Below, one piece after another: positions 3,519 to 57,871 of a stretch of DNA of 64,000 bases. The DNA is from Squalus acanthias. Taxonomy: Eukaryota. The stretch covers positions 85,810,001 through 85,874,000 of the forward strand of contig CM059432.1 of assembly GCA_030390025.1 (NCBI GenBank). Direction: 5' to 3'. Under the pieces are notes generated by a model. That model was not told where the DNA came from, searched no databases, and saw nothing but the letters and a program-made list of their open reading frames with translations. Positions within the stretch are counted from its first letter, which is position 1; every line of letters begins with the position of its first letter. A program made the translations under genes and the position numbers.

Positions 3519-5679
3519 TAGAATAAATACAATATTATGATAGCATACCCAAAAATGATTTGTACTGCACAAAACCGAGCAACAATAAAGAGACAGAAAG
3601 TAACAAATGTGGAATTAGAAATGTTAAAATTCTGGAGGCAATTATTCACACAAAGGAGGACAAGCAAACTGCCCTGCCAGAAGTAAAAAAAATGGGTCAT
3701 ATGGTAAACAAAATCTCTTCATGAAATATTGTTTCATACCACTAGATGGTGCTACTGCATGGCACATAGCCAACTCTCACAATTACAGTATGCAAAGCAG
3801 CATGGTGTGAATAAGGTGCAGCCAGAGGACAATATTGATTAACTGACCCATCTACATTCTAATTCACCCAACATTACTTATGAATATTTATAAATACATT
3901 TATGCTAGATCTGCAACTTTTCCCAAATAATCAATGGTTGAGACAGCCACGTTGAGTATCCATAAAATGATTTCTGATAGACAAATATTAAACAGAATAT
4001 AATTAAAAATAGTGCAACAATACATACTGCAAAAATAAATTATTAAGATCTATCTACGTACATTTAATGCTACATTATCAATTAGGAGGCAATTTAATTA
4101 CACAATTGAACTGAAAACCAAAGTAGCATACACAACATTCTATGCAGTAAAAAGGGAAACTGAATTTCTACTAATCAATGAGATACTGTCTGAGCTAGGA
4201 CTGAATCAAGTCATCAAATTCAGTACGAACACAACATATATATCACACATTCTGATAGTACACAAATATGTTAAACTTAATTGTTTCCTGCATTCTAGGC
4301 CAAGCGTTTGCAACCATCTTCAGTCAGAAGTGCCGAGTGGATGATCCATCTTGGCCTCCTCCTGAGGTCCCCACCATCACAGAAGCCAGTCTTCAGCCAA
4401 TTCGATTCACTCCACGTGATATCAAGAAACGGCTGAGTGCACTGGATACAGCAAAGGCTATGGGCCCTGACAATATCCCGGCTGTTGTGCAGAAGACTTG
4501 TGCTCCAGAACTAGCCGTGCCTCTAGCCAAGCTGTTCCAGTACAGCAACAATGCTGGCATCTACCCGACAAAGTGGAAAACTGCCCAGGTATGTCCCATC
4601 CACAAAAAGCAGGATAAATCCAATCTGGCCAATTACTGACCCATCAGTCTACTCTCAATCATCAGCAAAGTGATGGAAGGTGTTGTCGACAGTGCTATCA
4701 AGCAGCACTTACTCACCGATAACCTGCTCACCGATGCTTAGCTTGGTTTCCGCCAGGACCACTCGGCTCCAAACCTCATTACAGCCTTGGTCCGAACATG
4801 GACAAAAGAGCTGAATTCCAGAGGTGAGGTGAGAGTGACTGTCCTTGACATCAAGGCAGCATTTGACCGAGTGTGGCGTCAAGGAGCCCTCGTAAAATTG
4901 AAGTCAAACTCTCCACTGGCTGGAGTCATACCTAGCACAAAGGAAGATGGTTGTGGTTGTTGAAGGCCAATCATCTCAGCCCTAGGACATCGCTGCAGGA
5001 GTTCCTCAGGGCAGTGTCCTAGGCCCAACCATCTTCAGCTGCTTCATCAATGACCTTCTCTCCATCATAAGGTCAGAAGTGGGGATGTTCGCTGATGACT
5101 GCACAGTGTTCAGTGCCATTCACAACTCCTCAGATAATGAAGCAGTCTATGCCCGCATGCAGCAAGCCCTGGACGACATTTAGGCTTGGGCTGATAAGTG
5201 GCAGGTAATATTCGCGCCACACAAGTGCTGAGCAATGACTATCTCCAACAAGCGAGAGTCTAACCGCCACCCCTTGACATTTAATGGCATTACCATCACC
5301 GAATCCCCCAACATCAACATCCTGGGGTCACCATTGACCAGAAACTTAACTGGACCAGTCACATAAATACTGTGGCTACAAGAGCAGGTCAGAGGCTAGG
5401 TATTCTGCAGCGAGTGTCTCTCCTCCTGGCTCCCCAAAGCCTTTCCACCATCTACAAGGCACAAGTCAGGAGTATGATGGAATACTCTCCACTTGCCTGG
5501 ATTAGTGCAGCTCCAACAACACTCAAGAAGCTCGACACCATCCAGGACAAAGCAGCCCGCTTGACTGGCACCCCATCCACCACCTTAAACATTCACTCCC
5601 TCCACTACTGGCGTACCGTGGCTGCAGTGTGTACCATCTACAAGATGCACTGCAGCAGGCTGCAGCGAGGTCCTCCCGA

Positions 5680-6040
5680 CCCCGCTGCTGGTCCATGCTG
5701 CGCCACTCCTGGGCCTTGACCTTGCTGCTGGGCTCGTCCTCACTCCTGGAACCCGACCTCGCTCCTGGGTTCCGACCTCGCTGCTCCTCCCGCCCCTGCT
5801 CCTGGGCCTCGACCTTGCTCCTGGGCCCTGTCCTCGCCCCTGGGCCTCAACCTCGCTCCTGGGACCTGACCTCACTCCTGGATCCAGTCCTCGCTCCTGA
5901 GTCCCGACCTCGCTCCTGGATCCCGTCCTCGCTCCTGGATCCCGTCCTCGCTCCTAGGTCCCTACCTCGCTCCTGGATCTCGTCCTCGCTCCTGGGTCCT
6001 GACCTCGCTCCTGGGTCCTGGCCTTGCTCCTGGGCCTCAA
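5680..6040. repeat. GC-rich minisatellite, 19-bp unit (CTCGCTCCTGGRTCCCGWC-like), roughly 18-19 copies
   Basis: Directly visible tandem units such as ctcgctcctggatcccgtc and ctcgctcctgggtcctgac. Confidence 0.9.
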
Positions 6041-6174
6041 ACAGCCGGTGTAGGCCTGAAGCCCCGAATAAAAGCCCACATACCCCGTGTTTGCCCCGGT
6101 TAGTGACCGCCCAGGTGAGCGGGGTCACTGGTCGCCATCTTGTGAAGCCTTGATAACCTGTGTATTACTCCAGG

Positions 6175-6290
6175 TCTCCTCCCCCTGACTCTCGCTCCCG
6201 CTCTCCCCGACTCTCGCTCTCCCCGACTCTCGCTCTCCACGACTCCCACTCCCGCTCTCCCCGACTCTCGCTCTCGCTCTCCCCGATTCT
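6175..6290. repeat. CT-rich simple tandem repeat (CTCTCCCCGACTCTCG)n
   Basis: Directly visible. Confidence 0.85.
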
Positions 6291-6344
6291 TGCGGGAAGG
6301 AGGGAGGAGGACAGTGGGAGTATGTTTGTGTGTGTGTGCTAGGC

Positions 6345-7591
6345 CAATGTGACAGAGCCTGGTCTCCAATCGTCTTGGATCCCCTTGCCATTGGACCAAG
6401 ACCTTGCTCTGTCAAGCCCGTATGGTAGCTGGTGTGCAACGGCCATCCCACGTTAAAAGAATTCACGCACAGGCCACTTCCACCCTTTAAAATGAAGTTC
6501 GGGACCTGGAACGTCAGGACCCTCATGGACAACCCCAACAGCGACAGACCGGAACGCCGTACTGCTATCGTTGCCCGGGAGCTCAGACGTTTCGGCATAA
6601 TCATCGTTGCCCTAAGCAAGACCCGGCGGGCAGGGGAAGGCCAGTTCAAGGAGCAAGGCGGTGGTTACACCTTCTTCTGGAAAGGCAAACCTGAAGAAGA
6701 ATGCTGCAATGCTCCATCTCAACCTCAGTAAGCTCCCCGCTAGAGTGGAGCTAATCTACAGAACAAACGGGAAACTTTTCAACCTCCGTCGCCTCTGGTC
6801 CAGATCCAAGGTCGTCCCATCCTCTGTCATCGAATTACAGTATGCAGACGCTTCCGTCTGCGCACACTCTGAGGTCGAACTCCAAACCATCATCAACACC
6901 TGCACTGAAGCGTACGAGAGCATGGGCCTTACACTAAACATCCACAAGACAAAGGTCCTCTACTAACTTGCCCCCACCACACAGTACTGCTCCCCGATTA
7001 TCAAAATCCATGATGAGGCCTTGGACAACGTGGACCACTTTCCATACCTCGTCAACAAGGGCAGACGTCAATGACGAAGTCCAGCACCGCCTTCAGTGTG
7101 CCAGTGCAGCCTTCGGTCGCCTGAGGAAGAGAGTGTTTGAAGACCAGGACCTCAAACCCAGCACCAAGCTCATGGTCTACAGAGCAGTAGTGATATCTGC
7201 CCTCCTGTATGCTTCAGAGACATGAACCATGTACAGCAGGCACCTCAAAGCACTGGAGAGATACCACCAACGCTGCCTCCGCAAAATCCTGCAAATCCAT
7301 TGGCAGGATAGGCGCACTAACGTCAGTTTTCTCGCTCAGGCCAACATCCCCAGCATCGAAGTTTTGACCACGTCCAATCAGCTCCGATGGACGGGCCACA
7401 TCGTCCGCATGCCCGATACGAGACTCCCAAAGCAAGCGCTCTACTTGGAGCTCCGACATGGCAAGAGAACCCCAGGTGGGCAGAGGAAATGCTTCAAGGA
7501 CACCCTCAAAGCCTCCTTAAAAAAGTGCAACATCCCCACTGACACCTGGGAATCCTTGGCCCAAGACCGCACAAAGTGGAGGAGAAGCATC
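6345..7591 (+). mobile_element. RTE-clade LINE, internally deleted and 3'-truncated
   Basis: APE N-terminus MKFGTWNVRTL...VALSKTR...GYTFFWKG (6492-6700) is joined directly to RT C-terminal parts (LQYAD, GLTLNIHKTKV, YHQRCLRKIL, QLRWTGHIVRM, GGQRK.FKD.LK). Confidence 0.9.
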
Positions 7592-8589
7592 CGCCAAGGC
7601 TTCTTCGACAGCACCTCCCAAACCCACAACCTCTACCACCTAGAAGGACAAGGGTAGCAGGTGCATGGGAACACCATCACCTCCAAGTTCCCCTCCAAGT
7701 CACACACCATCCTGACTTGGAAATATATCGCTGTTACTTCATAGTCGCTGGGTCAAAATCCTGGAACTCCCTCCTTAATAGCACTATGGAAGTACCTTCA
7801 CCACGCGGACGGCAGCGGTTCAAGAAGGTGGCTCATCACCACCTTCTCAAGGCAATTAGGATGGGCACATCCCAGGAACAAATTTTTAAAAAGCTACATT
7901 TCCTGGTACTAAGCATTTGCCATTTCTACAAATATGAGAATTTCTTGAGGGACCATACAAAACAAGAAGACTTTTATAGATGTTTCCTCTCTGAGGACTA
8001 TCTTCTAATCGTAACTGATGAATAGAGATTGTGAAATTTACACTTGGGCTAGTCCCAAGTATGATACTCATCCATTGGTATATCTTCCACAACCCCCATC
8101 CAAAAATGAAAATAGACAATAGCTTACCTTGAAATAGATATATTCTTACTTTACATATTCTCTTTGTTTCAGTTTCAGACATCGAAATATCACACTATAT
8201 TTCAGCTCTTTCTGAAAACAGTGTACAAAGCTCTTACTGTTGAATGAAAGTCCTTAAAACAAGAACTATTGTAATTCTTGGAAAATTACGAAGTAATACC
8301 TCATCACACTTGATATCAATCACCTATGGGTCTTCAATTTGGTTGAAAATTGATAATCAAGCTTTCTACATTTATAAACCCAACAGATAATGTGGCTTTT
8401 TATAAAGCACATCAAGAAGAAAAGAAATATTAAAACAGATGCATATGATTGATTAACATATACAGACCAATCTAAACCACTCAAGATCAAACAAGGTGAT
8501 GAGGTACTAGCTCGTCAAAGGAAAGAAGGAAAACTATGTACACTGTTTAATCCAAAACCACATATATAGCAGGCATCATCAATACATTC

Positions 8590-10686
8590 TTTCAGATGAT
8601 ATGTTAAACTGAGGCCCCTTCTGCCTTCTTAAGTGGTACGGTAGCATAATGGTTATGTTACTGGCCTAGTAATCCAGAGGCTAGACTAATGATCGGGAGA
8701 CATGAGTTCAAATTCTACCACGGCAGCTGGGGAATTTAAATGTAATTAATTAAGTAAATCTGGAATATAACCATCTTCAGCCAGTGGATGATCCATATCA
8801 GCCTACTCCCGAGGTCCCCACCATCACAGAAGCCAGTCTTCAGCCAATTCGATTCACTCCACGTGATATCAAGAAACGCCAGGGCGCACTGGATACAGCA
8901 AAGGCTATGGGCCCTGACAATATTCTGGCTATCGTACTGAAGACTTGTGCTCCAGAACTAGCTGCGCCTCTAGCCAAGCTGTTCCAGTACAGCTACAACA
9001 CTGGCATCTATCCGACTTTGGGGAAAACTGCCCAGGTATGTCCTGTCCAGGACAAATCCAATCCGGCCAATTACCGCCCCATCAGTCTACTCTCAATCAT
9101 CAGCAAAGTGATGGAAGGTGTCATCAACAGTGCTATCAAGTGGCATTGACTCACCAATAACCTGCTCACTGATGCCCAGATTGGGTTCCACCAAGATCAC
9201 TCAGCTCCCGACCTCATTACAGCCTTGGTCCAAACATGGACAAAGGAGCTGAATTCCAGAGGTGAGGTGAGAGTGACTGTCCTTGACATCAAGGCAGCAT
9301 TTGACCGAGTGTGGCATCAAGGAGCCCTAGTAAAACTGAAGTCAATGGGAATCGGGGGGAAAACTCTCCACTGGCTGGAGTCATACCTAGCACAAAGGAA
9401 GATGATTGTAGTGGTTGAAGGTCAATCATCACAGACCCAGGACATTGCTGCAGGAGTTCCTCAGGGCAGTGTCCGAGGCCCAACCATCTTCAGCTGCTTC
9501 ATCAATGACCTTCCCTCCAACATAAGGTCAGAAATGGGGATGTTCGCTGATGACTGTTCAGTGCCATTCACAATCCTCAGATAATTAAGCAGTCCATGCC
9601 CGCATGCAACAAGACCTGGACGACGTTCAGGCTTGGGCTGATAAGTGGCAGGTAATATTCGTGCCACACAAGTGCCAGGCAATGACTATCTCCAACAAGC
9701 GAGAGTCTAACCACCGCCCCTTGACATGCAACAACATTATCATCGCCGAATCCCCCACTATCAACATCCTGGGGATCACCATTGACCAGAAACTTAACTG
9801 GACCAGCCACATAAAAACTGTGGCAACAAGAGCTGGTCAGAGGCTAGGTATTCTGCGGCGAGTGTCTCACCTCCTGACTCCCCAAAGCCTTTCCACCATC
9901 AACAAGGCACAAGTAAGGAGTGTGATGAAATGCTCTCCACTGCCTGGATGAGTGCAGCTCCAACAACACTCAAGGAGCTCGACACCATCCAGGACAAAGC
10001 AGCCCGCTTGATTGGCACCCCATCCACCACCTTAAACATTCACTCCATCCACCACCAGCGTACCATGGCTGCAGTGTGTACCATCTAAAAGATGCACTGC
10101 AGCAACTCGCCAAGGCTTCTTTGGCAGCACCTCACAAACCCGCGACCTCTTCCACCTAAAAGGACAAGGGCAGCAGGCGCATGGGAACACCACCAAGTTC
10201 CCCTCCAAGTCATACACCATCCTGACTTGGAAATATATCGGCGATCATTCATCGTCGCTGGGTCAAAATCCTGGAACTCCCTATCTAACAGTACTGTGGG
10301 AGTACCTTCACCACATGGGATGCAGTGGTCCAAGAAGGCGGTTCACCACCACCTTCTCAAGGGCAATTAGGGATGGGCAATAAATGCTGGCCTTGCCAGC
10401 GACGCCCGCATCCCAGGAATGAATAAAAATAGTAAAAGATCCCATGGCACTATTTGAAGAGCAGGGTGTCCCCGGTGTCCTGGCCAATTTTTATCCCTCA
10501 ACTTATACTTAAAACAGATTATACACTCACTATCTCATTGCTGTTTGTGGGACCTTGCTGTGCACAAATTGGCTGCCGCGTTTCATACAACAGTGACTAC
10601 ACTTCAAAAGTACTTCATTGGTTGTGAAGTGCTTTGGGATGTCCCGAGGTTGTGAAAATCATGATATAAACGCAAATTCATTCGTT
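8590..10686 (+). mobile_element. DeuSINE split by a family A LINE (pieces 8590-8633 and 10431-10686)
   Basis: cagatga..gttaaactgaggcccc... continues after the LINE as gtaaaagatcccatggcactattt..., colinear with the SINE at 3124-3518. Confidence 0.8.
8634..10430 (+). mobile_element. Family A LINE with tRNA-derived head, internally deleted
   Basis: Head with A box (TAGCATAATGG) and B box (GAGTTCAAATTC) joined at about 8770 to the RT region (ORFs 8784-9149, 9225-9584, 9604-9951). Tail gggcaataaatgctggccttgccagcgacgcc. Confidence 0.92.
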
Positions 10687-25258: not shown

Positions 25259-26564
25259 TCACGTCATGTATCGTGACATAAACCCAAGATCCCGGTTGAG
25301 GCCGTCCTCATGAGTGCGGAACTTGGCTATCAGTTTCTGCTCGATGATTTTGCGTTGTCGTGTGTTTCTAAGGCCGCCTTGGAGAACGCTTACCCGCAGA
25401 TCCGAGGCTGAATGTCCTTGACTGCTGAAGTGTTCCCCGACTGGGAGGGAACACTCCTGCCTGGTGATTGTTGCGCGGTGTCCGTTCATACGTTGTCGCA
25501 GTGTCTGCATGGTCTCGCCGATGTACCATGCCGCGGTGCATTTTTTCCTGCAACGTATGAGGTAGACAACGTTGGCCGAGTCACATGAGTATGTACCATG
25601 TACCTGGTGGGTAGTGTCCTCACGTGTGATGATGGTATCTGTGTTGATGATCTGGCATGTCTTGCAGAGGTTGCCGTGGCAGGGTTGTGTGGTGTCGTGG
25701 TCGCTGTTATCCTGAAAGCTGGGTAATTTGCTGCGAACGATGGTACTTCTGAGGTTAGGTGGCTGTTTGAAGGCAAGTAGTGGAGGCGTGGCGATGGCCT
25801 TAGCGAGGTGTTCGTCGTCATCGATGACATGTTGGAGGCTGCGAAGAACATGGCGTAGTTTCTCCGCTCCGGGGAAGTACTGGACGATGTAGGGTACCCT
25901 GTTGGTTGTGTCCCGTGTTTGCCTTCTGAGGAGGTCTATGCGATTTTTCGCTGTGGCCCGTCGGAACTGTCGATCGATGAGTTGAGCGTCATATCCCGTT
26001 CTTACGAGGGCGTTTTTCAGCGTCCGTAGGTGTCCATCGCGTTCCTCCTCGTCTGAGCAGATCCTGTGTATTCGCAGGGCTTGTCCATAGGGGATGGCTT
26101 CTTTAACGTGGTTAGGGTGGAAGCTGGAGAAGTGGAGCATCGTGAGGTTGTCCGTGGGCTTGCGGTAGAGTGAAGTGCTGAGGTGTCCGTCTTTGATGGA
26201 GATTCGTGTGTCCAGGAATGAAACCGATTCTGAGGAGTAGTCCATGGTGAGTTTGATGGTGGGATGGAACTTGTTTATGTTACCGTGTAGTCTTTTCAGT
26301 GATCCTTCGCCATGGGTCCAAAGGAAGAAAATGTCGTCGATGTATCTGGTGTACAGCGTTGGCTGGAGGTCCTGTGCAGCGAAGAAGTCTTGCTCGAACT
26401 TGTGCATGAAGATGTTGGTGTATTGGGGTGCGAATTTGGTCCCCATTGCTGTTCCGTGTGTTTGGGTAAAAAAATGGTTGTCGAAGGTGAAGACATTGTG
26501 GTCAAGGATGAAGCGGATGAGTTGTAGGATGGCGTCTGGAGATTGGCTGTTGTTGGTGTTGGTG
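25259..26564 (-). CDS. Penelope RT C-terminal half plus GIY-YIG endonuclease (no native start; truncated)
   Basis: GTAMG, YTRYIDDIF, SFLDT, LYRKPTD and VVYLIRC..C...YIGET...RMNGH, GLN motifs in about 435 open codons. Confidence 0.88.
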
Positions 26565-27334
26565 TTTATTAGCCGAGGCATAGAATATAAGAGCAGGGAG
26601 GTTATGCTTGAACTGTATAAAACACTAGTTAGGCCGCAGCTAGAATACTGCGTGCAGTTCTGGTCATCACATTACAGGAAGGATATGATTGTACTAGAGA
26701 GAGTGCAGAGGAGATTTACGAGGATGTTACCTGGGCTGGGGAATTTTAGCTATGAGGAAAGATTGGATAGGCTGGGGTTGTTTTCTTTGGAACAGAGGAG
26801 GCTGAGGGGAGACCTAATTGAGGTGTATAAAATTATGAGGGGCCTAGATAGAGTGGATAGTAAGGACCTATTTCCCTTTAGTACAAGGGTCAATAACCAG
26901 GGGGCATACATTTAAAGTAATTAGTCGGAGGTTTAGAGGGGAATTGAGACTTTTTTTCACCCAGAGGGTGGTGGGGGTCTGGAACTCTGTCTGTCTGAAA
27001 GGGTGGTAGAGGCAGAAACCCTCATCACATTTAAAAAGTACTTGGATATGCACTTGAAGTGCCATAACCTACAAGGCTACGGACCAAGTGCTGGAAAGTG
27101 GGATTAGGGTGGATAGCTCTTTGTCGGCCGGCACGGACAAGGTGGGCCGGATGGCCGCCTTCTGTGCTGTAAATTTATGATTCTATGATCCGGTTTGACC
27201 GTGGAACAATAGACTTTTACTCACCTTAGTGTAAAATGTGTTTCTCAGATTAAATTTCCGATTAAGTGGCGTGTGCTACAAATATTTGCCATTTAGTTAT
27301 TTCTGTCCTCCGCTTATAGAAATATTGATCTAAG

Positions 27335-27670: not shown

Positions 27671-28670
27671 CCACAGCACTTGTGGAACTGTATCTTTTCA
27701 GGAACGGAGATTTTGGATGTATCTGGATGAAAAATTAAAGGAGGGGGGAATATTTCCTGATCAAAGCTTACCATTTTATTGCAAACAGCATGCTAGAGAC
27801 GGAGCTGAGCGATCCCACAACTAACTGATCAGGTTACAGCTCTGCAGTCCAACCACATCCATTGGGCTGAATGGTGGTGGACACTTAATCAACTAAAGGG
27901 GGAAGGAGGAGGAGGCTCTATGAACATCCCCATCATCAATGATGGCGGAACCCAGCATATGAGTACAACAGACAAGGCTAAAGTGTTCGCAATCATTTTT
28001 CATCTAGAAGTGCTAAGTGGATGATCCTTCTTGGCCTCTTCTTAGGTCCCTACCATCACAGATGCCAGTCTTTAGCCATATCAAGAAATGGCTGAGCGCA
28101 CTGGACACGGCAAAGGCTATGGATCCTGTCAGCATCCCAGCTGTAGTGCTGAAGATCTGTGCTCCAGAACTAGCCATGGCTCTAGCCAAGCTGTTCCAGT
28201 ACAGCTGCGACACTGGCATCTACCTGAAAATGTGGAAAATTCTCCAGGTATGTCCTGTCCACAAAAAGCAGAAAAAATCTAACCCGGCCAATTGCCGTCC
28301 TATTAGCCTACTCTCAATCATCAACAGTGCTATCAAGTGGCTCTTACTCACCAATAACATGCTCACCGATGCGCAGTATGGATTCTGCCAGGATCACTCA
28401 ACTCCAGACCTCATTAAATCCTTGGTCCAAATATGGACAAAAGAGCTGAATTCCAGAGGTAAGGTGAGAGTGACTGCCTTGACATCAAGGCAGCAGTTGA
28501 CAGAGTGTGGCATCAAGGATCCCTAGTAACTCTGAAGTCACTAGTGAAATGGGCAGTCACATGGCAGATGAAATTTAGCGCGGTGAAGTGATGCATTTTG
28601 GTAGGAAGAATGAGGCAAGGCAATATAAACTAAATGGTACAATTTTAAAGGGGGTACAGGAACAGAGAGA

Positions 28671-29982
28671 AATAAAAACAGAAAATTCTGGAAATACTCA
28701 GCAGGTCAGGCAGCATCTGTGGAGAGAGAAACTGAGTTAACGTTTCAGGTCAATGACCTTTCGTCAGAACTAGAAAAAGTTCGAGATATAACCGATTTTA
28801 AGCAAGTGTAGGGGCAAGGTAAGGGGGGAGGGGAGGAAAGAACAAAAGGGAAGGTCTGCGATAGGGTGGAAGGCAGGAGTGATTAAATGACAAAAGGGAT
28901 GATGGTGCAAGGAAAAAAGAGATGGTAATGGGACAAGTAAAGAAAGAAAAGATGGGTCTAGAGGAGGTGTAAATGGGAATAACAGAATCATCAACAGCTG
29001 GCTTCTAGAAAAAATGGAAGCAGAGGTTCTGATCTGAAATTGTTGAAGGGAAGCGGTAAAAGGGCAGGTGTTGCATCTCCTGCGCTTGCATGAGGAGATG
29101 CCGTGGGAAGGGGTGTTGGGGGTGATTGAGGAGTGGACCAGGGTGTCGCAGAGGGAACAGTCCCTTTGGAATGCTGAGAGGGGAGGGGAAGATGTGTTTG
29201 GTGGTGGGATCACGCTGGAGGTGGCGGAAATGGCAGAGGATGAGCCATTGAATGTGGAGGCTGGTGGGGTGGGAGGTGAGGACAAGGGAAATCCTATCCT
29301 GGTTCTGGCAGGGAGGGGAAGGGGTGAGAGCAGAAGTGTGGAAAGTGGAACAGACACGGTCAAGGGCCCTGTCAACTACGGTGGAGGGGAATCCTTTGGT
29401 TGAGGAAAAAGGAAGACATGTCCGAAGCACTGATATGGACAGTGGCATCGTCCGGACAGATGCGACGGAGATGAAGAAACTGGGAGACTGGAATAGAGTC
29501 CTCACAGGAAGCAGGGTGGAAGGAACTGTAGTTAATGTAGCTATGGGAGTCAGTGGGCTTCTAGTTAATATTGATCGCTAGTCTATCCCCAAAAATGGAG
29601 ACATAGAAGTCGAGGAAGGGAAGAGTCGGAGATGGACCATGTAAAGGCGAGGGAAAGGTGGAAATTGGAAGCAAAGTTGATTACATTTTTTAGTTTGGGG
29701 CGAGAGCAGGAAATGACACCGATACAATCATCAATGTACTGGAAAAAGAGGTGAGGGAGGGAATCTGAGTAGGACTGGGACAAAGAATGTTCCTCATATC
29801 CCACGAAAAGGGAGGCACAGCTAAGACCTGTATGGGTTCCCATAGCAACACCTTTTTATTTGGAAGAAGTAGTGGAGTCAAAGGAGAAGTTGTTCAATGT
29901 GAGAACAAGTTCAGCCAGGCAGGTGGTGGTGGATGGGGTCTTGGTTGGGCCTCCGTTCAAGGAAGAAGTGGAGGGCGTCTTA
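28671..29982 (-). mobile_element. Penelope-like element 2 (second family, decayed)
   Basis: Fragments MGT..G.S.A.LFVG, QYIDDCIG, LVLTSHP and the C..C Cys cluster. Terminal region with hammerhead motif. Confidence 0.85.
28734..28771 (-). ncRNA. Minimal type I hammerhead ribozyme motif (intact core)
   Basis: Minus strand reads AGUU CUGACGA A AGGUC auu GACCU GAAA CG UU AACU. Confidence 0.78.
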
Positions 29983-31752
29983 AGAGAGAGAGAGACTTGG
30001 GGGGTGTACGTACACAAGTCTTTGAAGGTGGCAGGACAAGTTGAAAAGGCTGTTAAACAGATACAGTATCCTTGACTTTATAAATAGAACCATAGAATTC
30101 AAAAGCAAGGAAGTTTTGCTAAACTTTTTTAAAACACTCGTTAGGCCCCAGCTGGGGTATTGTCCAATTCTGGGCAACACACTTTAGGATGGATGTCAAG
30201 TTCTTGGAGAGGTTACAGAGGAGATTTACTAGAATGGTACCAGTGATGAGGGACTTTAGTTATGTGGAGAGACTAGAGAAACGAGTTGCTCTCCTTAGAG
30301 CAGCGAAGGTTAAGAGATTTGATAGAGGTGTTCAAAATCATGAATGGTTTTGATAGAGTAAATAAGGAGAAACTGATTCCAGTGGCAGAAGGGTTGGTAA
30401 CCAGAATGCACAGATTTAAGGTGATTGGCTAAAGAACCAGAGACGATATAAGGAAAAATGTTTTAATGCAGCGAGTTGTTTGATCTGGAATGCACTGCCT
30501 GAAAGGGTGGTGGAAGCAGATTCAATAATAACTTTTAAAAGGGGGTTGGATAAATACTTGGAGGAAACATTTGCAGGGCTATGGGGGAAAGAGCATGGGA
30601 GTGGGAGTAATTTGGTAGCTCTACCAAAGAGCCGGCACAGGCACGCTGGGGCGATTGGCCTCCTTCTGTGCTGTATCATTCTATGATTCTAATAGGGATT
30701 AGTGGAAATCTTTCCAGTGGCTGGAGTCACACCTAGCAAAAAGAAAGATGGTTGTTGGAGGCTAATCATCTCAGCCCCAGGACATCGCTGCTGGAGTTCC
30801 TCAGGGCACCATCTTAGGCCCAACTTTCTTCAGATGTTTCAGCGATGATCTTCCCTCCAGCATAAGGTCAGAAGTGGGGCTGTTCGCTGAGGATTGCACC
30901 GTGTTCAGTTCCATTCGCAATTCCTTCATGCACACATGCAGTGAAGCCTGGACAACATCCAGGCTTGGGCTGGTAAGTGGCAAGTAATATTTGTGCCACA
31001 CAAGTGTCAGGCAATGAGCATCTCCAACAAAAGAGAGTCTAACCAACTCCCCTTGACATTCAATGGCATTACCATTACTGAATCCCCACCATCAACATCC
31101 TGGGGATAATGATTGACCAGAAACTTAACTAGACCATCCATGTAAATACTGTGTCTACTAGAGCAGGTTAGAGGCTGGGCATTCAGCGGCAGGTGGCTCA
31201 TCTGACTCCCCAAATCCTCTCCCCCACCTACAAGGCACAAGTCAGGAGTGTGATGGGATACTCTTTACTTACTTGGATGGGTGCATCTGCAACAACACTC
31301 AAGAAGCTCAACACCATCCAGGCCAAAGCGGTCCGCTTGATCGACAGCACATCCACTGCCTCCACCACCGGCGCATCATGGCTGCAGTGTGTACCATCTA
31401 CAAGATGCACTGCAGCAACTCGCCAAGGCTTCTTCGACAGCACCTTCCAAACTCGTGATCTCTGCCTCCTAGAAGGACAAAGCAGCAGGTGCATGGGAAC
31501 ACCATTATCTTCATGTTCCCCTTCAAGTCACAAACCATCCTGACTTGGACATTTATTGCCGCTCAATCATTGTTGCTGGGTAAATGTCCTGGAACTCCCT
31601 ACCTAATAGCACTGTGGGAGTACCTTCACCATACAGACTGCAATGGTTCAAGATGATGGCTGACCACCACCTTGTGAGCAACTAGGGATAGGCAATAATT
31701 GCTGGACTTGCTAGCGACACCCATATCCCAAGAATTAACTTTTTAAAAACTG

Positions 31753-32707: not shown

Positions 32708-33242
32708 CTGAAACATGAGAAGCTGTCAGAAATTAGCTGAAAAATTGAAACTGAAGAAGCCAATAAAACCTGAACTCCCACTTCTCCCGACCCTTTCCCA
32801 TGCCTTGCCTCTCAGCAATAAATTTCCCACTCGTTAAGTTCCTGATATCAGTTGGGTATTGGGGAAGATTCGGACCAGAGATCAGGTACTTTGCCACAGG
32901 TAAGGAAAAATTCTGAGAGCACGTAAGCCCATGTTGTTCTTGATCATCTTCTAATAGCCAGTTATATAGGGATGTTGTCAGAAGCCTTGGAGTAGGTTGC
33001 CTGCCCACACTCTTGATTGGCTCAATGTGAACGGGCTGGGTGAGGAGAGAGCAAGAGCTTTTACTTGCATTATTTCACAAGCCAGCACTGAAACATTAAA
33101 TCTCATCGCTAGCCTTGGGAACAGTGTAGGATCACTGATTGCAAAGCAAGGCAATAAGATGTTAGGGCTTTAATTCACTCTTTCTCCCACCCCCCTCCTC
33201 CGTTTTCTTCCTTCTTCTTTAGTAGGTACTGGCTCTTTTTGT

Positions 33243-36200
33243 TTATTCATTTATGGGATGTGGACATCGCTGGCAAGGCCAGCATTTATTGCCTATCCCT
33301 AATTGCCCTCGAGAAGGTGGTGGTGAGCCACCGCCTTGAACCGCTGCAGTCTGTGTGGTGAAGGTACTCCCACAGTGCTGTTGGGGAGTTCCAGAATTTT
33401 GACCCAGCGACGATGAAGGATCAGCAATATACTTCAAAGTCCGGATGGTGTGTGACTTGGAGGGGAACTTGGATGTGGTGGTGTTCCCATGCGCCTGCTG
33501 CCCTTGTCCTTCTAGGTGGAAGAGATCGCGGGTTTGGGAAGTGCTGCCGACGAAGCCTTGGTGCGTTGCTGCAGTGCATCTTGTAGATGGTACACACTGC
33601 AGCCACGGTACGCCGGTGGTGGAGGGAGTGAATGTTTAAGGTGGTGGATGGGGTGCCAATCAAGCGGGCTGCTTTGTCCTGGATGGTGTCAGGCTTCGCG
33701 TATTGTTGGAGCTGCACTCATCCAGGCAAGTGGAGAGTATTCCATCACACTCCTTACTTGTGCCTTGGAGATGGTGGAAAGGCTTTGGGGAGTCAGGAGG
33801 TGAGACACTCGCCGCAGAATACCTAGCCTCTGACCTGCTCTTGTTGCCACAGTATTTATGTGGCTGGTCCAGTTAAGTTTCTGGTCAATGGTGACCCCCA
33901 GGATGTTGATGGTGGGGAATTCGGCAATGGTTAGACTCTGAGGAACTCCTGCAGCGATGTCCTAGGGCTGTGATGATTGACCTTCAACCAGCACAACCAT
34001 CTTCCTTTGTCCTAGGTATGACTCCAGCCAGTGGAGAGTTTTCCCCCCCCCGATTCCCATTAACTTCAGTTTTACTAGGGCTCCTTGATGCCACACTCGG
34101 TCAAATGCTGCCTTGATGTCAAGGGCAGTCACTCTCACCTCACTTCCTGGAATTCAGCTCCTTTGTCCATGTTTGGACCAAGGCTGTAATGAGGTCGGGA
34201 GCCGAGTGGTCCTGGCTGAACCCAAACTGGGCATCAGTGAGCAGGTTATTGGTGAGTAAGTGCTGCTTGATAGCACTGTTGATGACCCCTTCCATCACTT
34301 TGCTGATGATTGAGAGTAGACTGATGGGGCGGTAATTGGCCGGATTGGATTTGTCCTGCTTTTTGAGGACAGGACATACCTGGGCAGTTTTCCACATTGT
34401 TGGACAGATGCCAGTGTTGTAGCTGTACTGGAACAGCTTGGCTAGAGGTGCGGCTAGTTCTGGAGCACAAGTCTTCAGCATGATAGCCGGGATATTGTCG
34501 GAGCCCATAACCTTTGCTGTATGCAGTGCGCTCAGCCGTTTCTTGATATCATGTGGAGTGAATCGAATTGGCTGAAGACTGGCTTCTGTGATGGTGGGGA
34601 TGTCGGGAGTAGGCCGATATGGACTCTGCACTTCTGGCTGAAGATGGTTGCAAACGCTTCAGCCTTGTCTTTTGCACTCACGTGCTGGGCTCCATATTCA
34701 TGGAGCCTCCTCCTCCCGTTAGTTGTTTAGTAGTCCACCACCATTCATGACTGGATGTGGCAGGACTGCAGAGCTTTGATCTGATCTGTTGATTGTGGGA
34801 TCGCTTCGCCCTGTCTATAGCATGCTGCTTCCGCTTTTTAGCATGCATGTAGTCCTGTATTGCAGCCTCCCCAGGTTGGCACCTCATTTTTAGGTACGCC
34901 TGGTGCTGCTCCTGGCATGCTCTTCTACACTCCTTATTGACCAGGGTTGGTCCCCTGGCTTGATGGTAATGGTAGAGTGAGAGATATGCCGTGCCATAAG
35001 GTTAATGATTGTGGTGGAATACAATTCTGCTGCTCGTCCTTCTTGACTTGTCTGCAGCCTTTGACATGGTTGACCACTTCATCCTTCTCCACCGTCGTCC
35101 AGCTGGGTGGGACTGCACTCTCTTGGTTCCATTCTTATCTATCTAATCGTAGCCAGAAAATCACCTGCAACGGCTTCTCTTCCCGCTCCCGCTAGACTTG
35201 ACTATTCCAACGCATTTCTGGCTGGCCTCCCACATTCCACCCTACGTAAACTTGAGGTCATCCAAAACTCGGCTACCCGTGTCCTAACTCGCACCAAGTC
35301 CCGTTCGCTGAGCTACATTGGCTCCCGGTTAAGCAGCGCCTCAATTTCAAAATTCTCATCCTTGTTTTCACATCTCTCCATGGCCTCGCCCCTTCCTATC
35401 TCTGTAATCACCTTCAGCTGCATAACCCTCCCCCGAGATATCTGTGCTTCTCTAATTCTGCCCTCTTGAGGATCCCTGATTATAATCCGTGCCTTCTGTT
35501 GCCTCGGCCCTAAGCTCTGGAATTCCCTGCCTAAACATGTCCGCCTCGCTACCTCTCTTTCCTCCTTTAAGACGATCCTTAAAACCTACCTCTTTGACCA
35601 AGCATTTGGTCATCTGCCCTAATTTATCCTTATGTGGATCGGTGTCACATTTTTTTGTCTTAAAATACTCCTGTGCAGCGCCTTGGGACCTTTTACTATG
35701 TTAAAGGCGCTATTTATATACTTGTTGCTGCTGCTGATGGCCCACAGCGCCTCATGGATGCCCAGTTTTGAGCTGTTAGATCTGTCCTGAATCCATCCCA
35801 TTTAGCATGGTGGTAGTGCCACACAACACGATGGAGGGTGTCCTCCGTGTGAAGATGGGACTTCTTCAATGACTGTGCGGTGGTCACTGCTACCAATACT
35901 GTCATGGACAGATGCATCTGCGACAGGTAGATTGGTGAGGACGAGGTCAAGTAGGTTTTTCCCCTCGTGTTGGTTCTTTCGCCACCTGTCGCAGGCCCAG
36001 ACTGGCAGTTATGTCCTTCAGGACTCGGTCAGTAATGGTGCTACTGAGCCATTCTTCGTGATGGACATTGAAGTCCCCCACCCAGAGTTCATTCTGTGCC
36101 CTTGCTACTCTCCGTGCTTCTTCCAAGTGTTGTTCAACATGGAGGAGTACTGATTTATCAGCTGAGGGAGGGCAGTAGGAGGTTTCCTTGCTCATGCTTG

Positions 36201-36901
36201 CCCTGAAGCCATGAGACTTCATGGGGTCCAGAGTCAATGTTGAGGACTCCCAGGGCCACTCCTTCCCGACTGTATACCACTGTGCCACCATCCCTGGTGG
36301 GTCTGTCCTGCCAGGACATACCCAGGGATGGTGATGGAGGAGTTTGGGACATTGGCTGGAAGGTATGATTCTGTGAGTATGACTATGTCAGGCTGTTGCT
36401 TGACTAGTCTGTGGGACAGCTCTCCCAATTTTGGCACCAGTCCCCAGATGTTGGTGAGGAGGACTTTGCAGGGTCGACTGGACTGGGTGTGCCGTTGCTG
36501 TGTCCATAGCCGGTGTGGAGGTCGATGCCGGGTGGTCCGTCCGGTTTCATTCTTATTATTGTGTTTCATAGCGGTTTGTTACAACTGAGTGGCTTGCTAG
36601 GCCATTTCAGAGGGCAGTTAAGAGTCAACCACATTGCTGTGGGTCTGGAGTCACAGAAAGGCCAGACCAGGTAAGGATGGCAGCTTTCCTTCCCTAAAGA
36701 ACATTAGAGAACCAGATGGGTTTTTATGACAATCCGATAGTTTCATGGTCACCATTACTGATACTAGCTTTTTATTCCAGGTTTATTTAATTAACTGAAT
36801 TTAAATTCCCCAGCTGCCGTGGTGGGATTTGAACTCGTGTCTCTGGATCATTAGTCCAGGCCTCTGGATTACTAGCCCAGTGACATTACCAGTATGCTAC
36901 C
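33243..36901 (-). mobile_element. Most complete family A LINE: tRNA head, APE endonuclease, RT, tail; split by L2
   Basis: Head at about 36600-36901. APE motifs VLLTNIWGL, DIVILTESYL, WVGDFNVHH (ORFs 36234-36569, 35947-36291). RT ORF 34140-34631. Tail at 33243. Confidence 0.93.
35032..35730 (+). mobile_element. L2 LINE, internally deleted, inserted in family A
   Basis: GTALSWFHSYLSNR and RLDYSNAFLAGLP motifs, L2 tail. Flanked by repeated tgctgct. Confidence 0.88.
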
Positions 36902-45329: not shown

Positions 45330-45845
45330 GACTCTGCTACCCACCTAGCCAAGCTATTTGAGTGCAGCCTGACACTGGTATCTATCTAACAACAACATAG
45401 AACATATCTGGGCAATCTTCCATCAACAAAAAGCAGGATAGATTAATTCGTCTAATTATCGCCTTATCAGCCTATTCCAAATCATCATCAACTGGCTGCA
45501 GTATGTATGATCTACAGGATACACTCATCAGGCTTACGTTGGTAGCACCCCTCTGGCCCACAACCTCTAGCATCAAGAAGGACAAGAGCAGCAATATCAT
45601 GGAAGCATCATCACCTGTAAGTTCCCCTCCAGTCTCACACCATTCTGACTTGGACATGTATCTCTGCCCATTTATTGTCCTTGGGTCAAAGTCCTGGAAA
45701 TCCTTACTTAACATTATGGAAACATTATCAGCACAAGGACTGCAGCGGTTCAAGGGGAAGGCTCACAACAATCTTCAGGGCAACTAGGAATGGGGAATAA
45801 AAATGCAGCTTTCAGTGTCACCCACACCCAAGAACAAATATTAAA
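45330..45845 (+). mobile_element. Highly diverged family A LINE remnant
   Basis: ctagccaagct.tt, gggtcaaa.tcctggaa and gggcaactagg..tgggg.aataaa motifs shared with family A. Confidence 0.65.
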
Positions 45846-46606
45846 AAAAAAAAACCAGAATATTTGCAAACTCATTCCTTTTTCATTTTCAACTCTGGCT
45901 CGAATTCTTGATACAATTGGATAATTAAAAACACTGACATAGAAATGGGTTAGCAATTGGTACAGGAGGCCACATGCCATTCTGGAATCCACAATCTGAG
46001 GTTGTAATTGTTTCAAAGTGCTGCATTTAATACCCATTCATGGCAACTCCTAATCTATGATTGGGCTACTACTGTTATTCACTGTCTCTTTGGAAGAGCA
46101 GTTCGGAAAATGAATCACTTTAAACAGCTGTTGTCGTGAAACTTAAGATTTAGAATTTATGATTTTTCTAAGCTATTGCATCACTCGCTCCTTTACATCT
46201 CCACAAACAATTAGAAAGTCCTCCTGTTTCTCAGTCTGCATGAAACTACACTGAAAGCAGAGTAACAATAAGTAATTCAAGTTTTCACCTTTTCTTTTTC
46301 TCCTGTGAATGAATCTGTTTGTGTGCTATTGCTTTAAAGTATTTATTTCCAAATTAATTTGTTAATATATTATAAATATATGGACTCTAGGGGAATCAAG
46401 GGATATGGAGATAGGGCGGGAAAGTGGAGTTGAGGTCGAAGATCAGCTATGAGGGGCTGTATGTCCTACTCCTGCTCCTAATTCTTATGTATCAAGGTGG
46501 CACAGCATCTAGCTAAGTGTATATTCCGTTTATGCATGATTGTGCTAAATGAGCTTGACGAAATGGTTGTTAGGACATGGAGTATCCTACCACAAACAGT
46601 GGTGGA

Positions 46607-49342: not shown

Positions 49343-50979
49343 AGTTCAGCTTATTGCTGATATACTTGTGCTTTGATCTTATACAACTTTGTCCTTTCGA
49401 GTTGGAGTAAGAGAGTTGGCGGTCTTGCCACTCTCTAGGATACTCGTGCTGGCTTCAGTGACGTTGGCACGATACCTAACTCTGGCTAATAGAGTTCTTC
49501 AACTTAAAATCTCACTGTTGTGGGGAAGCTATTGGAATCTATAATTAAAAGAACAGAGTGACTGAGCCCTTAGAGAAATTTGAGCTGATTAGAGAGAGCA
49601 AACATGGATTTGTAAAGGGTAGGCCATGTCCAACAAATCTAATTGAAGGCAAATATTGACCTGGTTAAGAGATTGGTTAGGCTAATGGATGTTAGTCTTT
49701 CTAACTGGAGGGCTAGAATGTAAAGGGGAGGAAGTTTTGCTCCAGCTATACAAAAGTGGGGTGAGTAGTTGATAGAGCTTTTAAAGAGAAGTAATATTTT
49801 AATCATTAGCTAAAAGTTGTCCAGAAATATATACAAAACTTCTAATTCTGTTTTCAAATGATTTTAGAAATGTTCCGATGCTGTGTATTTTTATAAGGTA
49901 TTAACTTGGGGTGGTAACTTGGGGTGGGCGCCTGCAACCATCAGTTTACCACCCTTGCCGAAAGTGAAAGTCTGCCCCTTTAACTCCTGAAATGATATTG
50001 TAATGGACTGTTTTATGGTGAATCAATTCACTATAATTATAAAAATCGAAATAGTTTTTTTTCTAAATGTTTTCTAACTTCAGCTGCAGTTAATTGGAAA
50101 TATTCTCTCTAGGTGGCAATTGACTAACTCGTGGGTGTAACTATCCACGAGATGCGTGTGATGCTTGTTAAAATTGTAATTCTCTCTGGATTCTGTGCAA
50201 TCCTTACCATGTAAAGACTGATGAAGTCAGTCTGAGGTGTTCAGCTGAGTGGAGTCATCAAGTTGCTGAGAGTTTTGAGACCAGTGCCACAGTGGCACTG
50301 CACTGGTAGTTCTTTCATGAAATGTCAGTGTTGGATTTAAGTAACCTAAATCCAGAATAGCCTAAAGTTTTACTAGGTTTTTTATTATTCCTGTTCTGCA
50401 AGGTGTGTATACAATGGGCCTCCTTAGGTCTGACAGTCAATTCCCAGTACCATTATCACCAATCTAGTTTTTAAGTGGATCTTCTGGAACTGTAAACTGA
50501 TTGGAAAAAGTCTTCTTTATAAGGGTACTAATTAGTAAGTTTTTGAATTAATTTTCATCAGCAGCTAAGAAACTTTTAGAACTCAAACTAGGTTTCACCC
50601 CTGCCTACCTCTGTCCTGCTCTGATCAGTTTTGGATTTGGCAAAGAAGGCAATTCTACACCAATACATACAAAATATACACCAATGTAATTAATGCCATA
50701 GCTGAGGGCTTGTTAAAATGTTGAAGTGAAGACCTATCTAAATGAATTCACACTGTGGTAACTATTCAAAAGGAAGCTTCCTGAACATCACATAATTCCC
50801 ACCTGGCAGGGTCATCAATGACTGAGCTATAATTTCCTGATTTTTTTTTTGAAGGATGACTCATACGAAGCAATGTCGCTGTTAAATTACATTTTCTGAA
50901 GAAATCTAAATCTTTCTGCACAAGGGTCAGAATCCATGATGAGTCAGTTGAAAAGTTTTCAATATTCAAGTTACAATGG

Positions 50980-53233
50980 GAATGGTATCATAGTGGTAAT
51001 GTCACTGGGCTAGTAATCCAGAGGCCTGGACTAATGATCCAGAGACGTGAGTTCAAATCCCACCACGGCAGCTGGGGAATTTAAATTCAGTTAATTAAAT
51101 AAATCTGGAATAAAAAGCTAGTATCAGTTTCATGGTTACCATGAAACTATCAGATTGTCGTAAAAACCCATCTGGTTCACTAATGTCCTTTTAGGAAATC
51201 TGCCGTCCTTACCTGGTCTGGCCTACAGCAATGTGGTTGACTCTTAACTGTGGTTGACGCTTAACTGCCCTCTGAAATGGCCTAGCAAGCTACTTGGTTG
51301 TAACAAACCGCTACGAAACACAATAATAAGAATGAAACCAGACGGACCACCCGGCATCGACCTCAGCACCGGCAATGGCAACGGCAATGGCACACCCAGC
51401 CCAGTCGACCCTGCAAAGTCCTGCTCACCAACATCTGGGGACTTGGGAGAGCTGTCCCACAGACTAGTCAAGCAACAGCCTGACATGGTCATACTCACAG
51501 AATCATACCTTTCAGCCAATGTCACAAACTGCTCCATCACCATCCCTGTGTATGTCCTGTCCCACCGACCGGACAGACCCACCAGGGGTGGCGGCACAGT
51601 GGTATACAGTCGGGAAGGAGCATTTGCAACCATCTTAAGCCAGAAGTGCCGAGTGGATAATCCATATCGGCCTACTCCTGAGGTCCCCACCATCACCGAA
51701 GCCAGTCTTCAGCTAATTCGATTCACTCCATGTGATATCTAGAAACGGCTGAGCGCACTGGATACAGCAAAGGTGAAAGTGGAACAGTGACAGTGGAAAG
51801 ATGATCATTGGGTGTTTGAAGCTCATGATGTAAGTGCTGGGATCTGCCAAGGGAGCTGATACAGTAAAGGCTATGGGCCCCGACAACATCCCGGCTATCG
51901 TGCTGAAGACTTGTGCTCCAGAACTAGCAGCGCCTCGAGCCAAGCTGTTCCAGTACAGCTACAACACTGGCATCTGTCCGACAATGTGGAAATCTGCCCA
52001 GGTGTGTCCTGTCCACAAAAAGCAGGACAAATCCAAACCGGCCAATTACCGCCCCATCAGTCTTTGGCAAAGTGATGGAAGGTGTCATCGACCGTGCTAT
52101 CAAGCGGCACTTACCAATAACCTGCTCAATGATGCCCAGTTTGGGGGGTGGGGGGGAAAGGAAACTCTCCACTGGCTGGAGTCACACCTAGCACAAAGGA
52201 AGGTGGTTGAAGGTCAATCATCACAGCCCCAGGGCATCACTGCAGGAGTTCCTCAGGGCAGTGTCCTAGGCCCAACCATCTTCAGCTGCTTCATCAATGA
52301 CCTTCCCATCAACATAAGGTCAGAAATGGGGATGTTCGCTGATGACTGCAGTGTTCAGCGCCATTCACAACTTCTCAGATAATGAAGCAGTCCATGCTCG
52401 CATGCAACAAGACCTGGACGACGTTCAGTCTTGGGCTGATAAGTGGCAGGTAATATTCACACCACAGAAGTGCCAGGCAATGACCATCTCCAACAAGCGA
52501 GAGTCTAACCACCGCCCCTTGACATTCAACGGCATTACCATCGCCGAATCCCCCATCATCAACATCCTGGGGGTCACCATTGACCAGAAACTTAACTGGA
52601 CCAGCCACATAAATACTGTGGCAACAAGAGCAGGTCAGAGGCTGGGTATTCTGCGGCGAGTGTCTCACCTCCTGACTCCCCAAAGCCTTTCCACCATCTA
52701 CAAGGCACAAGTAAGGAGTGTGAGGGAATACTCTCCACTTGTTGGAGCTGCACTCATCCAGGCAATACTCGAAGCCCGACACCATCCAGGACAAAGCAGC
52801 CCGCTTGATTGGCACCCCATCCACCACCTTAAACATTCACTCCCTCCACCACCGGCGTACCGTGGCTGCAGTGTGTACCATCTACAAGATGCACTGCAGC
52901 AACTCGCCAAGGCTGCTTTGGCAGCACCTCCCAAATCCGCGACCTCTTCCACCTAGAAGGACCAGGGCAGCAGGCGCATAGGAACACCACCACCTCCAAG
53001 TTCCCCTCCAAGTCACACACCATCCTGACTTAGAAGTATATCGCCGATCCTTCATCATCGCTAGGTCAAAATCCTGGAACTCCCTGCCTAACAACACTGT
53101 GGGAGTACCTTCACCACACGGACTGTAGCGGCTGAAGAAGGCGGCTCACCACTGCCTTCTTAAGGGCAATAAATGTTGGCCTTGCCAACGACGCCCACAT
53201 CCCATAAACAAGTTTAAAAAAAAAAAAAAAAAA
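50980..53233 (+). mobile_element. Family A LINE with tRNA-derived head, internally deleted, poly(A) tail
   Basis: A box at about 50986-50996 and B box GAGTTCAAATCC at 51049-51060. APE start, then deletion at about 51620, then RT (MFADD). A-tail at 53216-53233. Confidence 0.93.
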
Positions 53234-54388: not shown

Positions 54389-55564
54389 ATGGGGGATTAA
54401 TTAGACACTGGCAGTCAACCTCGCCCTCCAGGATCTACGGTGGAGGCAGCGAGAAAGACTGGAACATGTGGCCAGAGGGAGAAGGAGGGCCATCAGGGCT
54501 CTCAACAGGAGGCCTTACCCTCCGAGGATATTCCGAGAGTAATTCTCCCACCTCCAATTAAGCGAGGAGCAGTGTAAGAGAAAGCTCCACTTCAAGGTGG
54601 TGGTCACAGAACTCTGCCATCTCCTGCAACTAGACCTCCAGCCTCAGATCAAGCCGACCACGGCTCTCCCAGTGCCAGTCAAGGTCACTGTCACACTCCA
54701 TTTCTTTGCCAGTGGATCCTTCCAGTCTGCAACAGGAGATATAGCTAACATCTTGTAGTTTGCTGTCCATCGCTGCATCCGGGAGGCCAGAGAGGCTCTC
54801 TACAGTAGGAGAAGGGATTACATTTCCTTCCCCATCACCAGAGCGAAGCAGGACGAGCATGCATGTGGCTTTGGCAGGATAGCGGGATTCCCTATGGTGC
54901 AGGGCGCCATTGACTGCACCCATGTGGCTTTGCGGGCACCGCATAATAATCCAGAGGTCTTCCGTAACTGCAAAGGCTACCAATCACTTAATGTGCAGTT
55001 GGTGTGTGACCACACACGGCTAATCCTCAATGTCAATGCCCGCTATCCTGGCAGCAGGCACAATGCCTTCATCCTGCGCCAGACCGGTGTGCCAGCACTC
55101 TTCCAGCCACCACATCAAGCTTGCGTCTGGCTGGTCGGAGACGAGGACTATCCGCTCTCCACCTGGCTCATGACTCCCCTCCCCAACCCCACCACTCATG
55201 CCCAGCACTCCTATATAATGAGAGCTATGCTTCCACCAGGAACATCATCGAGCAGGCCATCGGCCTACTGAAGCAACGGTTCCGCTGCCTTGACCGCTCG
55301 GGGGTAGCCCTCCAGTACTCGACTGAGCGGGTGTCCCATTTCGTAGTGGTCTGCTGCACACTCCACAACTTAGCCATCATGAGGGCCCAGCCCTTGCCAC
55401 CAGGGATTGTGGGACCACCTCGGGAGGAGGGAGAGGAGGAGGGAGAGGAAGATGAAGGTGATGAGGAGGAGGAGGAGGAGGAACAGGAGCGAGGGAGGAG
55501 GCAGCCACTCAATTGGCCTTCTGGAAGGGCGGTCCTTGATTGCCTCATCAGACTGCGGTTCTAA
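54389..55564 (+). pseudogene. Harbinger DDE transposase, disrupted
   Basis: LHFFASGSFQ, GAIDCTHVAL, SLNVQLVCD, YPGS.H, IEQAIGLLKQRFRCLD, CCTLHN and a poly-E tail. Confidence 0.9.
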
Positions 55565-57498: not shown

Positions 57499-57871
57499 GA
57501 GCACTTCTGGTTCAGTCCTCTGGCTGCTTCTGCTTGCTGAGGCAGCTGCACAGCCAGCAATGCTAAGAATGAAGTGCTCCAGCATCAATGAACCTCCCCT
57601 TTAAGAAATGAAAAAGCCTGTGGCAATGATGAGTTATGATTAGACTACGCCCAATATTGGTCCACCCTTTGAGTGTAACGCCAATGAGCTTGGGTTTTAA
57701 GGCTTGATTTAGGACTCCAATCATTTTATTGAGCAGTGAGCACGAATATTGTGTTCAGTCTAAAGCATTTGCGCCTGGTGCTAATTCTCCAACTTTTCTA
57801 CTGACACCGTCCATTCCTTGACTATAACTAATTTCTATCCCATAATCTTTCTGTGATTAGACCTGAGATTA

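Follow-up and report, generated by a model that had tools for sequence, protein, structure and literature searches.

A CR1-Zenon LINE of sharks and rays that begins with a tRNA-like head: a candidate for transcription by RNA polymerase III

The LINE described here begins with a tRNA-like head that carries A and B boxes and continues, with no ORF1, into a single long coding frame. It represents a genuine variant, of long standing, within a LINE clade already known, and we consider it a candidate for Pol III (RNA polymerase III) transcription. Our starting point was a 64,000-nucleotide stretch of Squalus acanthias DNA, hereafter the window, and the analysis was extended to the whole genome, to published consensus sequences of related elements and to metagenome loci.

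Copies in the window and the genomic family

The minus-strand copy at 36901-33236 has a tRNA-like head in common with the plus-strand copies that start at 8635 and 50978, which bears out the first-pass annotation of three copies with one shared head (placed there at 8634, 36901 and 50980). The parts of the minus-strand copy, followed by the other copies in the window, are listed below.

36820..36901, minus strand: tRNA-like head (family positions 7-88), in which an additional hairpin separates the anticodon arm from the B box
36889..36899, minus strand: A-box-like motif, one mismatch to the family consensus
36825..36836, minus strand: B-box-like motif, about 52 nt downstream of the A box
36579..36819, minus strand: the remaining 5' UTR (the body), with several short upstream AUG frames; not a Deu domain
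35726..36578, minus strand: 5' part of the single ORF, an AUG-less, K/R-rich leader of 37 codons and then APE from 36464; frameshifted
35030..35733, plus strand: L2 LINE fragments (87-90% to the L2 consensus), a later insertion in opposite orientation that does not belong to the element
33299..35034, minus strand: 3' part of the ORF, with linker, reverse transcriptase (RT) and C-terminus up to the stop; a deletion at 33938/33931 removes family positions 2331-2612
33236..33298, minus strand: short 3' UTR, with AATAAA at 33290-33285, a predicted stem-loop (fold z -1.9) and an A tail
50978..53224, plus strand: second copy with head and junction, internally deleted
8635..10429, plus strand: third copy, in which an internal deletion joins head positions 2-138 to the middle of the ORF, from family position 1616 onward
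4302..7867, plus strand: 5'-truncated copy in two pieces, 4302-5657 and 7592-7867
27783..31734, plus strand: older 5'-truncated copy or copies, pieces 27783-28540 and 30704-31734, about 82% to the consensus
45493..45850, plus strand: very old 3' end fragment, 73%

The head had been described as running into an APE endonuclease frame within about 430 bp in two copies. Indeed, the APE motif of the 36901 copy begins at 36464, 437 nt from the start of the head, and the 50978 copy has the same junction. The 36901 copy is dead, as it has lost the first 6 nt of the family and positions 2331-2612, carries frameshifts and one A-box mismatch, and is split by the L2 insert. Its sense strand, which had been scanned by eye as free of TTTT, contains no run of four T (T4) in 2,929 nt when the L2 insert is excluded, and the copies then placed at 4297 and 8634 (4302 and 8635 here) also contain none. 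A runs of at least four letters are as frequent as claimed, with 13 in the 36901 copy, 5 in the two pieces of the 4297 copy and 7 in the 8634 copy. Three CR1 copies of the window, about 1.1 kb each and said to be rich in sense TTTT, hold 5, 2 and 3 T4 on the coding strand. One detail did not hold: two TTTT runs had been reported in the head of the 50980 copy, and the count gives a single T4 for that copy.

A search of the 3.7-Gb genome with the head plus junction as query returned 7,962 candidates, and the junction was spanned in all 40 matches that were scored. From 39 loci taken, 35 of which extend to the tail, the consensus was built on 29 of 2.5-3.7 kb, with 6 left out for large insertions or deletions. 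The resulting family consensus of 3,314 nt comprises the tRNA-like head with A and B boxes, which opens a 5' UTR of 329 nt, one 973-codon APE-RT frame, AATAAA and poly(A); it has 13 internal A4 runs and no T4, and the 29 aligned copies diverge from it by 3.4-6.2%. APE and RVT_1 were detected by Pfam on natural pieces. A 28-letter motif spanning the junction has 1,288 exact matches in the genome, as compared to 0 for a reversed control. The head-to-APE junction, whose constancy in full-length copies the first-pass annotation had proposed to check, is thus fixed. A pattern for the older linker gave 1,150 matches, a set that overlaps the 1,288. No intact young copy was seen.

The 5' end was also addressed with copies picked on RT alone, namely the best 40 of 74 matches to the RT half, with the query excluded. 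Sixteen of the 40 reach the 5' UTR and all of these enter the tRNA-like head; neither another common 5' region nor a conventional 5' UTR with ORF1, named earlier as an observation that would count against the proposal, occurs among these best 40. The head is therefore the element's own 5' end. The 5' truncation of copies is random: 9 of the 40 begin at family position 1-4, 7 break inside the 5' UTR, 1 begins at 341 and the other 23 start at varied positions 3' of it. Tracing a supposed older headless subfamily from the 27783 copy yielded only the family already described, at 1% from the first consensus, and the idea was dropped.

At the 3' end, AATAAA is fixed and a poly(A) tail is present. 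A T run of at least four letters precedes the A tail in 18 of 81 3' ends, while a single T is found in 37; when considering these numbers, it should be noted that T runs in this position can grow after insertion (PMC9599045). Target-site duplications of at least 7 letters were seen in 2 of 36 copies, both borderline, and are essentially absent. Joins of head to tail are numerous, with 567 for one pattern; they use many different junctions, the commonest exact one occurring 78 times, and the LINE linker before the jump to the tail is kept in 3 of 12 older loci. By their sequence, the short head-tail elements look like internal deletions of the LINE that were SINE-shaped from birth. These elements are about 400-500 nt long, and some of their many junctions are recurrent (loci L070-L099, L303, L304 and L306).

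Relatives outside this genome were also considered. A metagenome scan yielded 80 loci, 60 of them with a frame of at least 400 codons (4 of these not RT). Five or more T4 are present in 59 of the 60, A and B boxes lie upstream of the frame in none of them, and only one metagenome locus (L140) falls in the clade of the element. The Atlas search yielded RT clusters only, and no DNA of close relatives was found in the viral contigs, prokaryote genomes or plasmids searched.

Identity and conservation among sharks and rays

As judged from its sequence, the family is the elasmobranch CR1-Zenon, for which a consensus was published in 2026 (PMC13343379). In the RT tree, the element does not group with L2 and belongs to a 100/98 clade of 26 rows that excludes the CR1 and L2 of this genome; its clade mates are unnamed proteins of 930-980 aa and an amphioxus protein, named Zenon proteins being absent from the tree. 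The name Zenon is thus given because of the match to the published SquAca_Zenon-1, which has the same 3,314 letters in length as our consensus and agrees with it over the first 400 but for a letter or two (by eye). Elasmobranch Zenon LINEs are all described as lacking ORF1 and having poly(A) (PMC13343379), and the family and its lack of ORF1 were therefore already known. In the parts of that paper drawn on here, the head, the avoidance of T runs and the missing AUG are not described: the terms 'tRNA', 'polymerase' and 'start codon' occur 0 times in its main text, as does 'tRNA' in its supplement.

All seven elasmobranch Zenon consensuses, from white shark, whale shark, catshark, spiny dogfish and a stingray, begin with the head and have the same body and junction, as compared by eye over the first 400 letters (CarCar, RhiTyp, ScyCan, SquAca and HypSab Zenon-1 are among them; PMC13343379, supplementary table 2). 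By eye, the A box is kept and the spacer has diverged. In the same comparison, a canonical B box is found in three species (white shark, whale shark and catshark); that of the stingray is missing a letter, and in one dogfish consensus it is truncated. The elasmobranch consensuses contain no T4 in their first 400 nt; over the same length and by eye, two hagfish Zenons and one from coelacanth start differently, show no such head and do contain T4. When the complete supplementary table was searched for four B-box strings and a variant, the only matching rows were those of elasmobranch Zenons. A contig from another organism also bridges the head-ORF junction, at about 80% identity. Sharks and rays split some 250-300 million years ago.

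Across species, the element starts 8 nt upstream of the A box, at the tRNA-like first base. Positions 8-63 of the Rfam tRNA model align to the head with 14.8 bits in the 36901 copy and 19.8 bits in another locus (L092), both below the gathering score of 29. ARAGORN called no tRNA gene, the head does not form a cloverleaf fold and its acceptor stem, as read from the sequence, is unpaired. No stable conserved fold of head or body was found (z between -0.8 and +1.1 for consensus pieces; z -3.3 for one copy, not reproduced in two others), and no ribozyme family in Rfam matched the head region. Between the boxes, an anticodon-like arm with loop AGT is followed, before the B box, by a near-copy hairpin (36880-36837, minus strand; family positions about 28-71). 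By eye, the stem of this extra hairpin is kept with different letters in dogfish and galeomorph sharks, and the hairpin is absent from the stingray consensus.

A Deu/SacSINE1 label for the body of the 5' UTR was tried and rejected, as a Deu-SINE consensus built on 23 copies does not match the element on the same strand. SacSINE1 and the DeuSINEs are tRNA-headed SINEs of sharks that form a separate family in this genome, with an L2-type tail and no similarity to either head or body of the Zenon element. The Deu motif (supplement of PMC5786205) marks this separate SINE in 31 of 311 loci, and its tail matches the end of L2 (79%, E 2e-7) and not that of the Zenon element. This Deu-domain tRNA SINE is about 470 nt long, and a fragment resembling it adjoins the 8635 copy, at about 8590-8634 of the window.

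Coding selection, translation start and T runs

Among 99 copies, 77 were assigned to four subfamilies that lie 2.5-6.2% from their consensuses, with the same frame in all. When subfamily consensuses are compared, pN/pS ranges over 0.17-0.42 and lies mostly near 0.2, and a still older set (9 of 12 loci) gives 0.18-0.21. As these ratios are low throughout, the older set included, the lineage that carries the head has been selected to code.

In all four subfamilies, the first in-frame AUG is at codon 287 of the 973-codon frame. The first 520 nt contain nine AUGs, none of which opens the long frame, while the 37 codons before the APE motif are open and K/R-rich, with this leader in frame in the five species (by eye, first 400 letters). 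For an AUG-less frame that lies behind many upstream AUGs, an uncapped RNA would be a better fit than scanning from a cap. In L140, the headless relative from the clade, an AUG immediately precedes the APE, unlike in the headed element. An out-of-frame AUG at family position 358, combined with a frameshift, was considered as the start and rejected, as older subfamilies lack this AUG and yet amplified as well; no slippery heptamer was seen by eye. In the oldest subfamily, the leader (positions 330-350) reads A-T-K-K, like the Met-started N-terminus of a relative (P0004). This may mark the ancestral position of the AUG, or it may be chance.

No T4 is present in any of five subfamily consensuses; as these are only 1-3% apart, they should not be taken as independent tests. 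In the 99 decayed copies (267 kb), 34 T4 were counted in all, as compared to 4.4 A4 per kb. When the whole element is compared to base shuffles, zero T4 is fewer than expected (3.8, P=0.019). The comparison proposed in the first-pass annotation, against codon-preserving shuffles and headless relatives, gave a divided answer. For the ORF, synonymous-codon shuffles predict 1.6-1.9 T4, and zero has a P of 0.11-0.19. The absence of T4 alone thus fails to beat the codon-preserving null, because the sense strand contains only 19% T. Shorter and interrupted runs are depleted relative to codon shuffles: TTT occurs 5 times in the ORF versus 11.4 expected (P about 0.002-0.003), four T in five letters once versus 5.6 (P 0.013), and TT is low at z -4.1, with AA slightly low at z -1.9. 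No such deficit is found in the controls: CR1 has 10 T4 with 11.1 expected, L2 has 5 with 6.4 expected and L140, the only headless clade relative with DNA in the comparison, has 20 with 19.9 expected.

When the element's protein is recoded with uniform, CR1 or L2 codon use, 3.7-6.4 T4 arise and the P of zero is at most 0.015. Codons ending in T are only modestly scarce before T once the CpG effect is removed, in the youngest subfamily (7/58 vs 94/354, p 0.02) more clearly than in an older one (p 0.15); the TT effect is partly CpG-related. Phenylalanine makes up 1.85% of the protein, below all 87 full-length relatives. The T-run signal is in the right direction for Pol III, but moderate.

Possible modes of transcription

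The first-pass annotation had proposed a SINE-headed coding LINE that is selected to avoid Pol III terminators. What stands of this proposal is the fixed head, the coding frame without ORF1, the selection on that frame and an absence of T runs as compared to the controls; what is weakened is the argument from T4, whose absence alone lies within the codon null, and from the lack of ORF1, which is general to Zenon. The reading that we find best, and towards which we lean somewhat, is that Pol III transcribes the element and that the same RNA is translated from a non-AUG start. Pol III transcription in some form, allowing also for a variant with two RNAs, appears probable. The fuller claim is that sharks and rays have carried, since their common ancestor, an autonomous coding Pol III retrotransposon with an uncapped 3.3-kb RNA and AUG-less translation, from which deletion gives birth to SINEs without any further step; this we put forward tentatively, with doubt slightly outweighing confidence.

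In the reading that we favor, a tRNA-derived internal Pol III promoter would have replaced the Zenon promoter before the shark-ray split. TFIIIC would bind the A and B boxes and Pol III would start at the first G, read through 3.3 kb, as no internal terminator is met, and end at a T run located at the tail or beyond it. The RNA would be polyadenylated, or its A tail templated. Translation of this same uncapped RNA would begin at a non-AUG start in the K/R-rich leader, and the RNA would be copied back by target-primed reverse transcription. Internal deletions would keep the promoter and the tail, and would therefore yield SINE-like derivatives at once. Several observations weigh against Pol III, namely the sub-threshold Rfam score, the lack of a cloverleaf, the small number of terminal T runs and the B-box defects in the stingray and in dogfish. 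The favored reading also has against it the accepted view of Pol III RNAs as short and non-coding (PMC10886601).

It is unlikely, although to be taken seriously, that the element is an ordinary Pol II LINE, to which a tRNA piece was once fused and either carried along or kept for opening chromatin, with a Pol II promoter in the body setting the start and the poverty in T reflecting base composition. Characterized LINE promoters are Pol II promoters and their replacement is frequent (PMC2881922), the AATAAA and poly(A) fit Pol II, with poly(A) being general to Zenon, and zero T4 in a strand of 19% T is within the codon-shuffle expectation. This explanation has to face, however, a start that coincides across species with the first base of the tRNA-like sequence, 8 nt upstream of the A box, and deficits of TT and TTT that go beyond the codon null and are absent in the controls. 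Moreover, ribosomes scanning from a cap would pass 8 upstream AUGs without meeting one in frame.

A division of labor between two RNAs is improbable. Here, the template that is copied would be a Pol III product, and the protein would be encoded by capped RNAs that Pol II makes from some copies, by read-through or with splicing, and that supply the start codon. Such a division would account for the head, the avoidance of T runs and the lack of an AUG with no need for cap-independent translation; nonetheless, steady purifying selection along the amplifying lineage is easier to understand if each RNA uses its own protein, and the K/R-rich leader is in frame in five species (by eye). Finally, it is very improbable that the head is no promoter and that its tRNA-like fold is cut from host read-through transcripts by RNase P or a ribozyme, thereby fixing the 5' end: self-cleavage does set the 5' end in several LINE clades (PMC5786205) and the conserved extra stem hints at a role at the RNA level, but the acceptor stem is unpaired, the Rfam match is restricted to model positions 8-63, neither a stable conserved fold nor an Rfam ribozyme match was found and T-run avoidance is left unexplained.

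LINEs are considered to use Pol II and SINEs Pol III, which limits length (PMC10886601, PMC5786205). The polymerase is thus what sets the two classes apart, and a coding LINE that has persisted for long under a Pol III promoter would, if true, break the rule. It would also provide a natural Pol III messenger RNA with a mappable start that depends on neither cap nor AUG, and a one-step route from LINE to SINE. The consensus is public and compact (3.3 kb), and from the favored reading, precise outcomes can be predicted for mutants of the B box and for the insertion of T runs.

Some Repbase entries of the Ingi clade have tRNA-like 5' ends. RTE-1_DAn and related elements, RTE LINEs of Drosophila, are said to contain a tRNA-like sequence (PMC5786205). 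They belong to a different clade and the likeness to Zenon comes from a one-sentence description, and yet RTE-1_DAn is a possible precedent that lowers the novelty. Our search of the literature turned up no description of a coding LINE transcribed by Pol III, nor of this head on Zenon; Repbase or Dfam may contain an entry that notes the head. The Zenons of insects, hagfish and coelacanth and their deletion derivatives named Persaeus (PMC6740152) are similar to the present element in their single APE-RT ORF, length of about 3.3 kb, poly(A) and short internally deleted copies. Persaeus, however, is described there as having no tRNA homology or Pol III promoter.

A tRNA head that lies at the very 5' end and carries A and B boxes, with no internal terminator, is shared with SINE2 and T+ SINEs (PMC9599045) and with Bov-tA and SINE2_Gav, which are tRNA-headed bipartite LINE derivatives (PMC5786205); T+ SINEs are also similar in their AATAAA and A tail, with between them a T run of variable length (PMC9599045) that in the present element reaches four letters in 18 of 81 ends. 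While tRNA-derived SINEs are short and non-coding, the shark element has 3.3 kb and a selected 973-codon frame. R2, a coding non-LTR element that is not a Pol II product and whose translation was proposed to be of the IRES type, serves as the analogy for an uncapped RNA; unlike Zenon, it is co-transcribed by Pol I in the rDNA and has no promoter of its own (PMC2881922).

The window contains several other features. A 470-codon open frame lies at 25259-26671 on the minus strand. It resembles a Penelope-type RT with a C-terminal GIY-YIG nuclease. Two presumed remnants of Harbinger/PIF-like transposases, with partner frames on the opposite strand, are found at 13872-14594 and 54759-55564 (plus) and at 15708-16322 and 55928-57600 (minus). 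A short tandem array occupies 5677-6033, inside the insertion that splits the 4302 copy.
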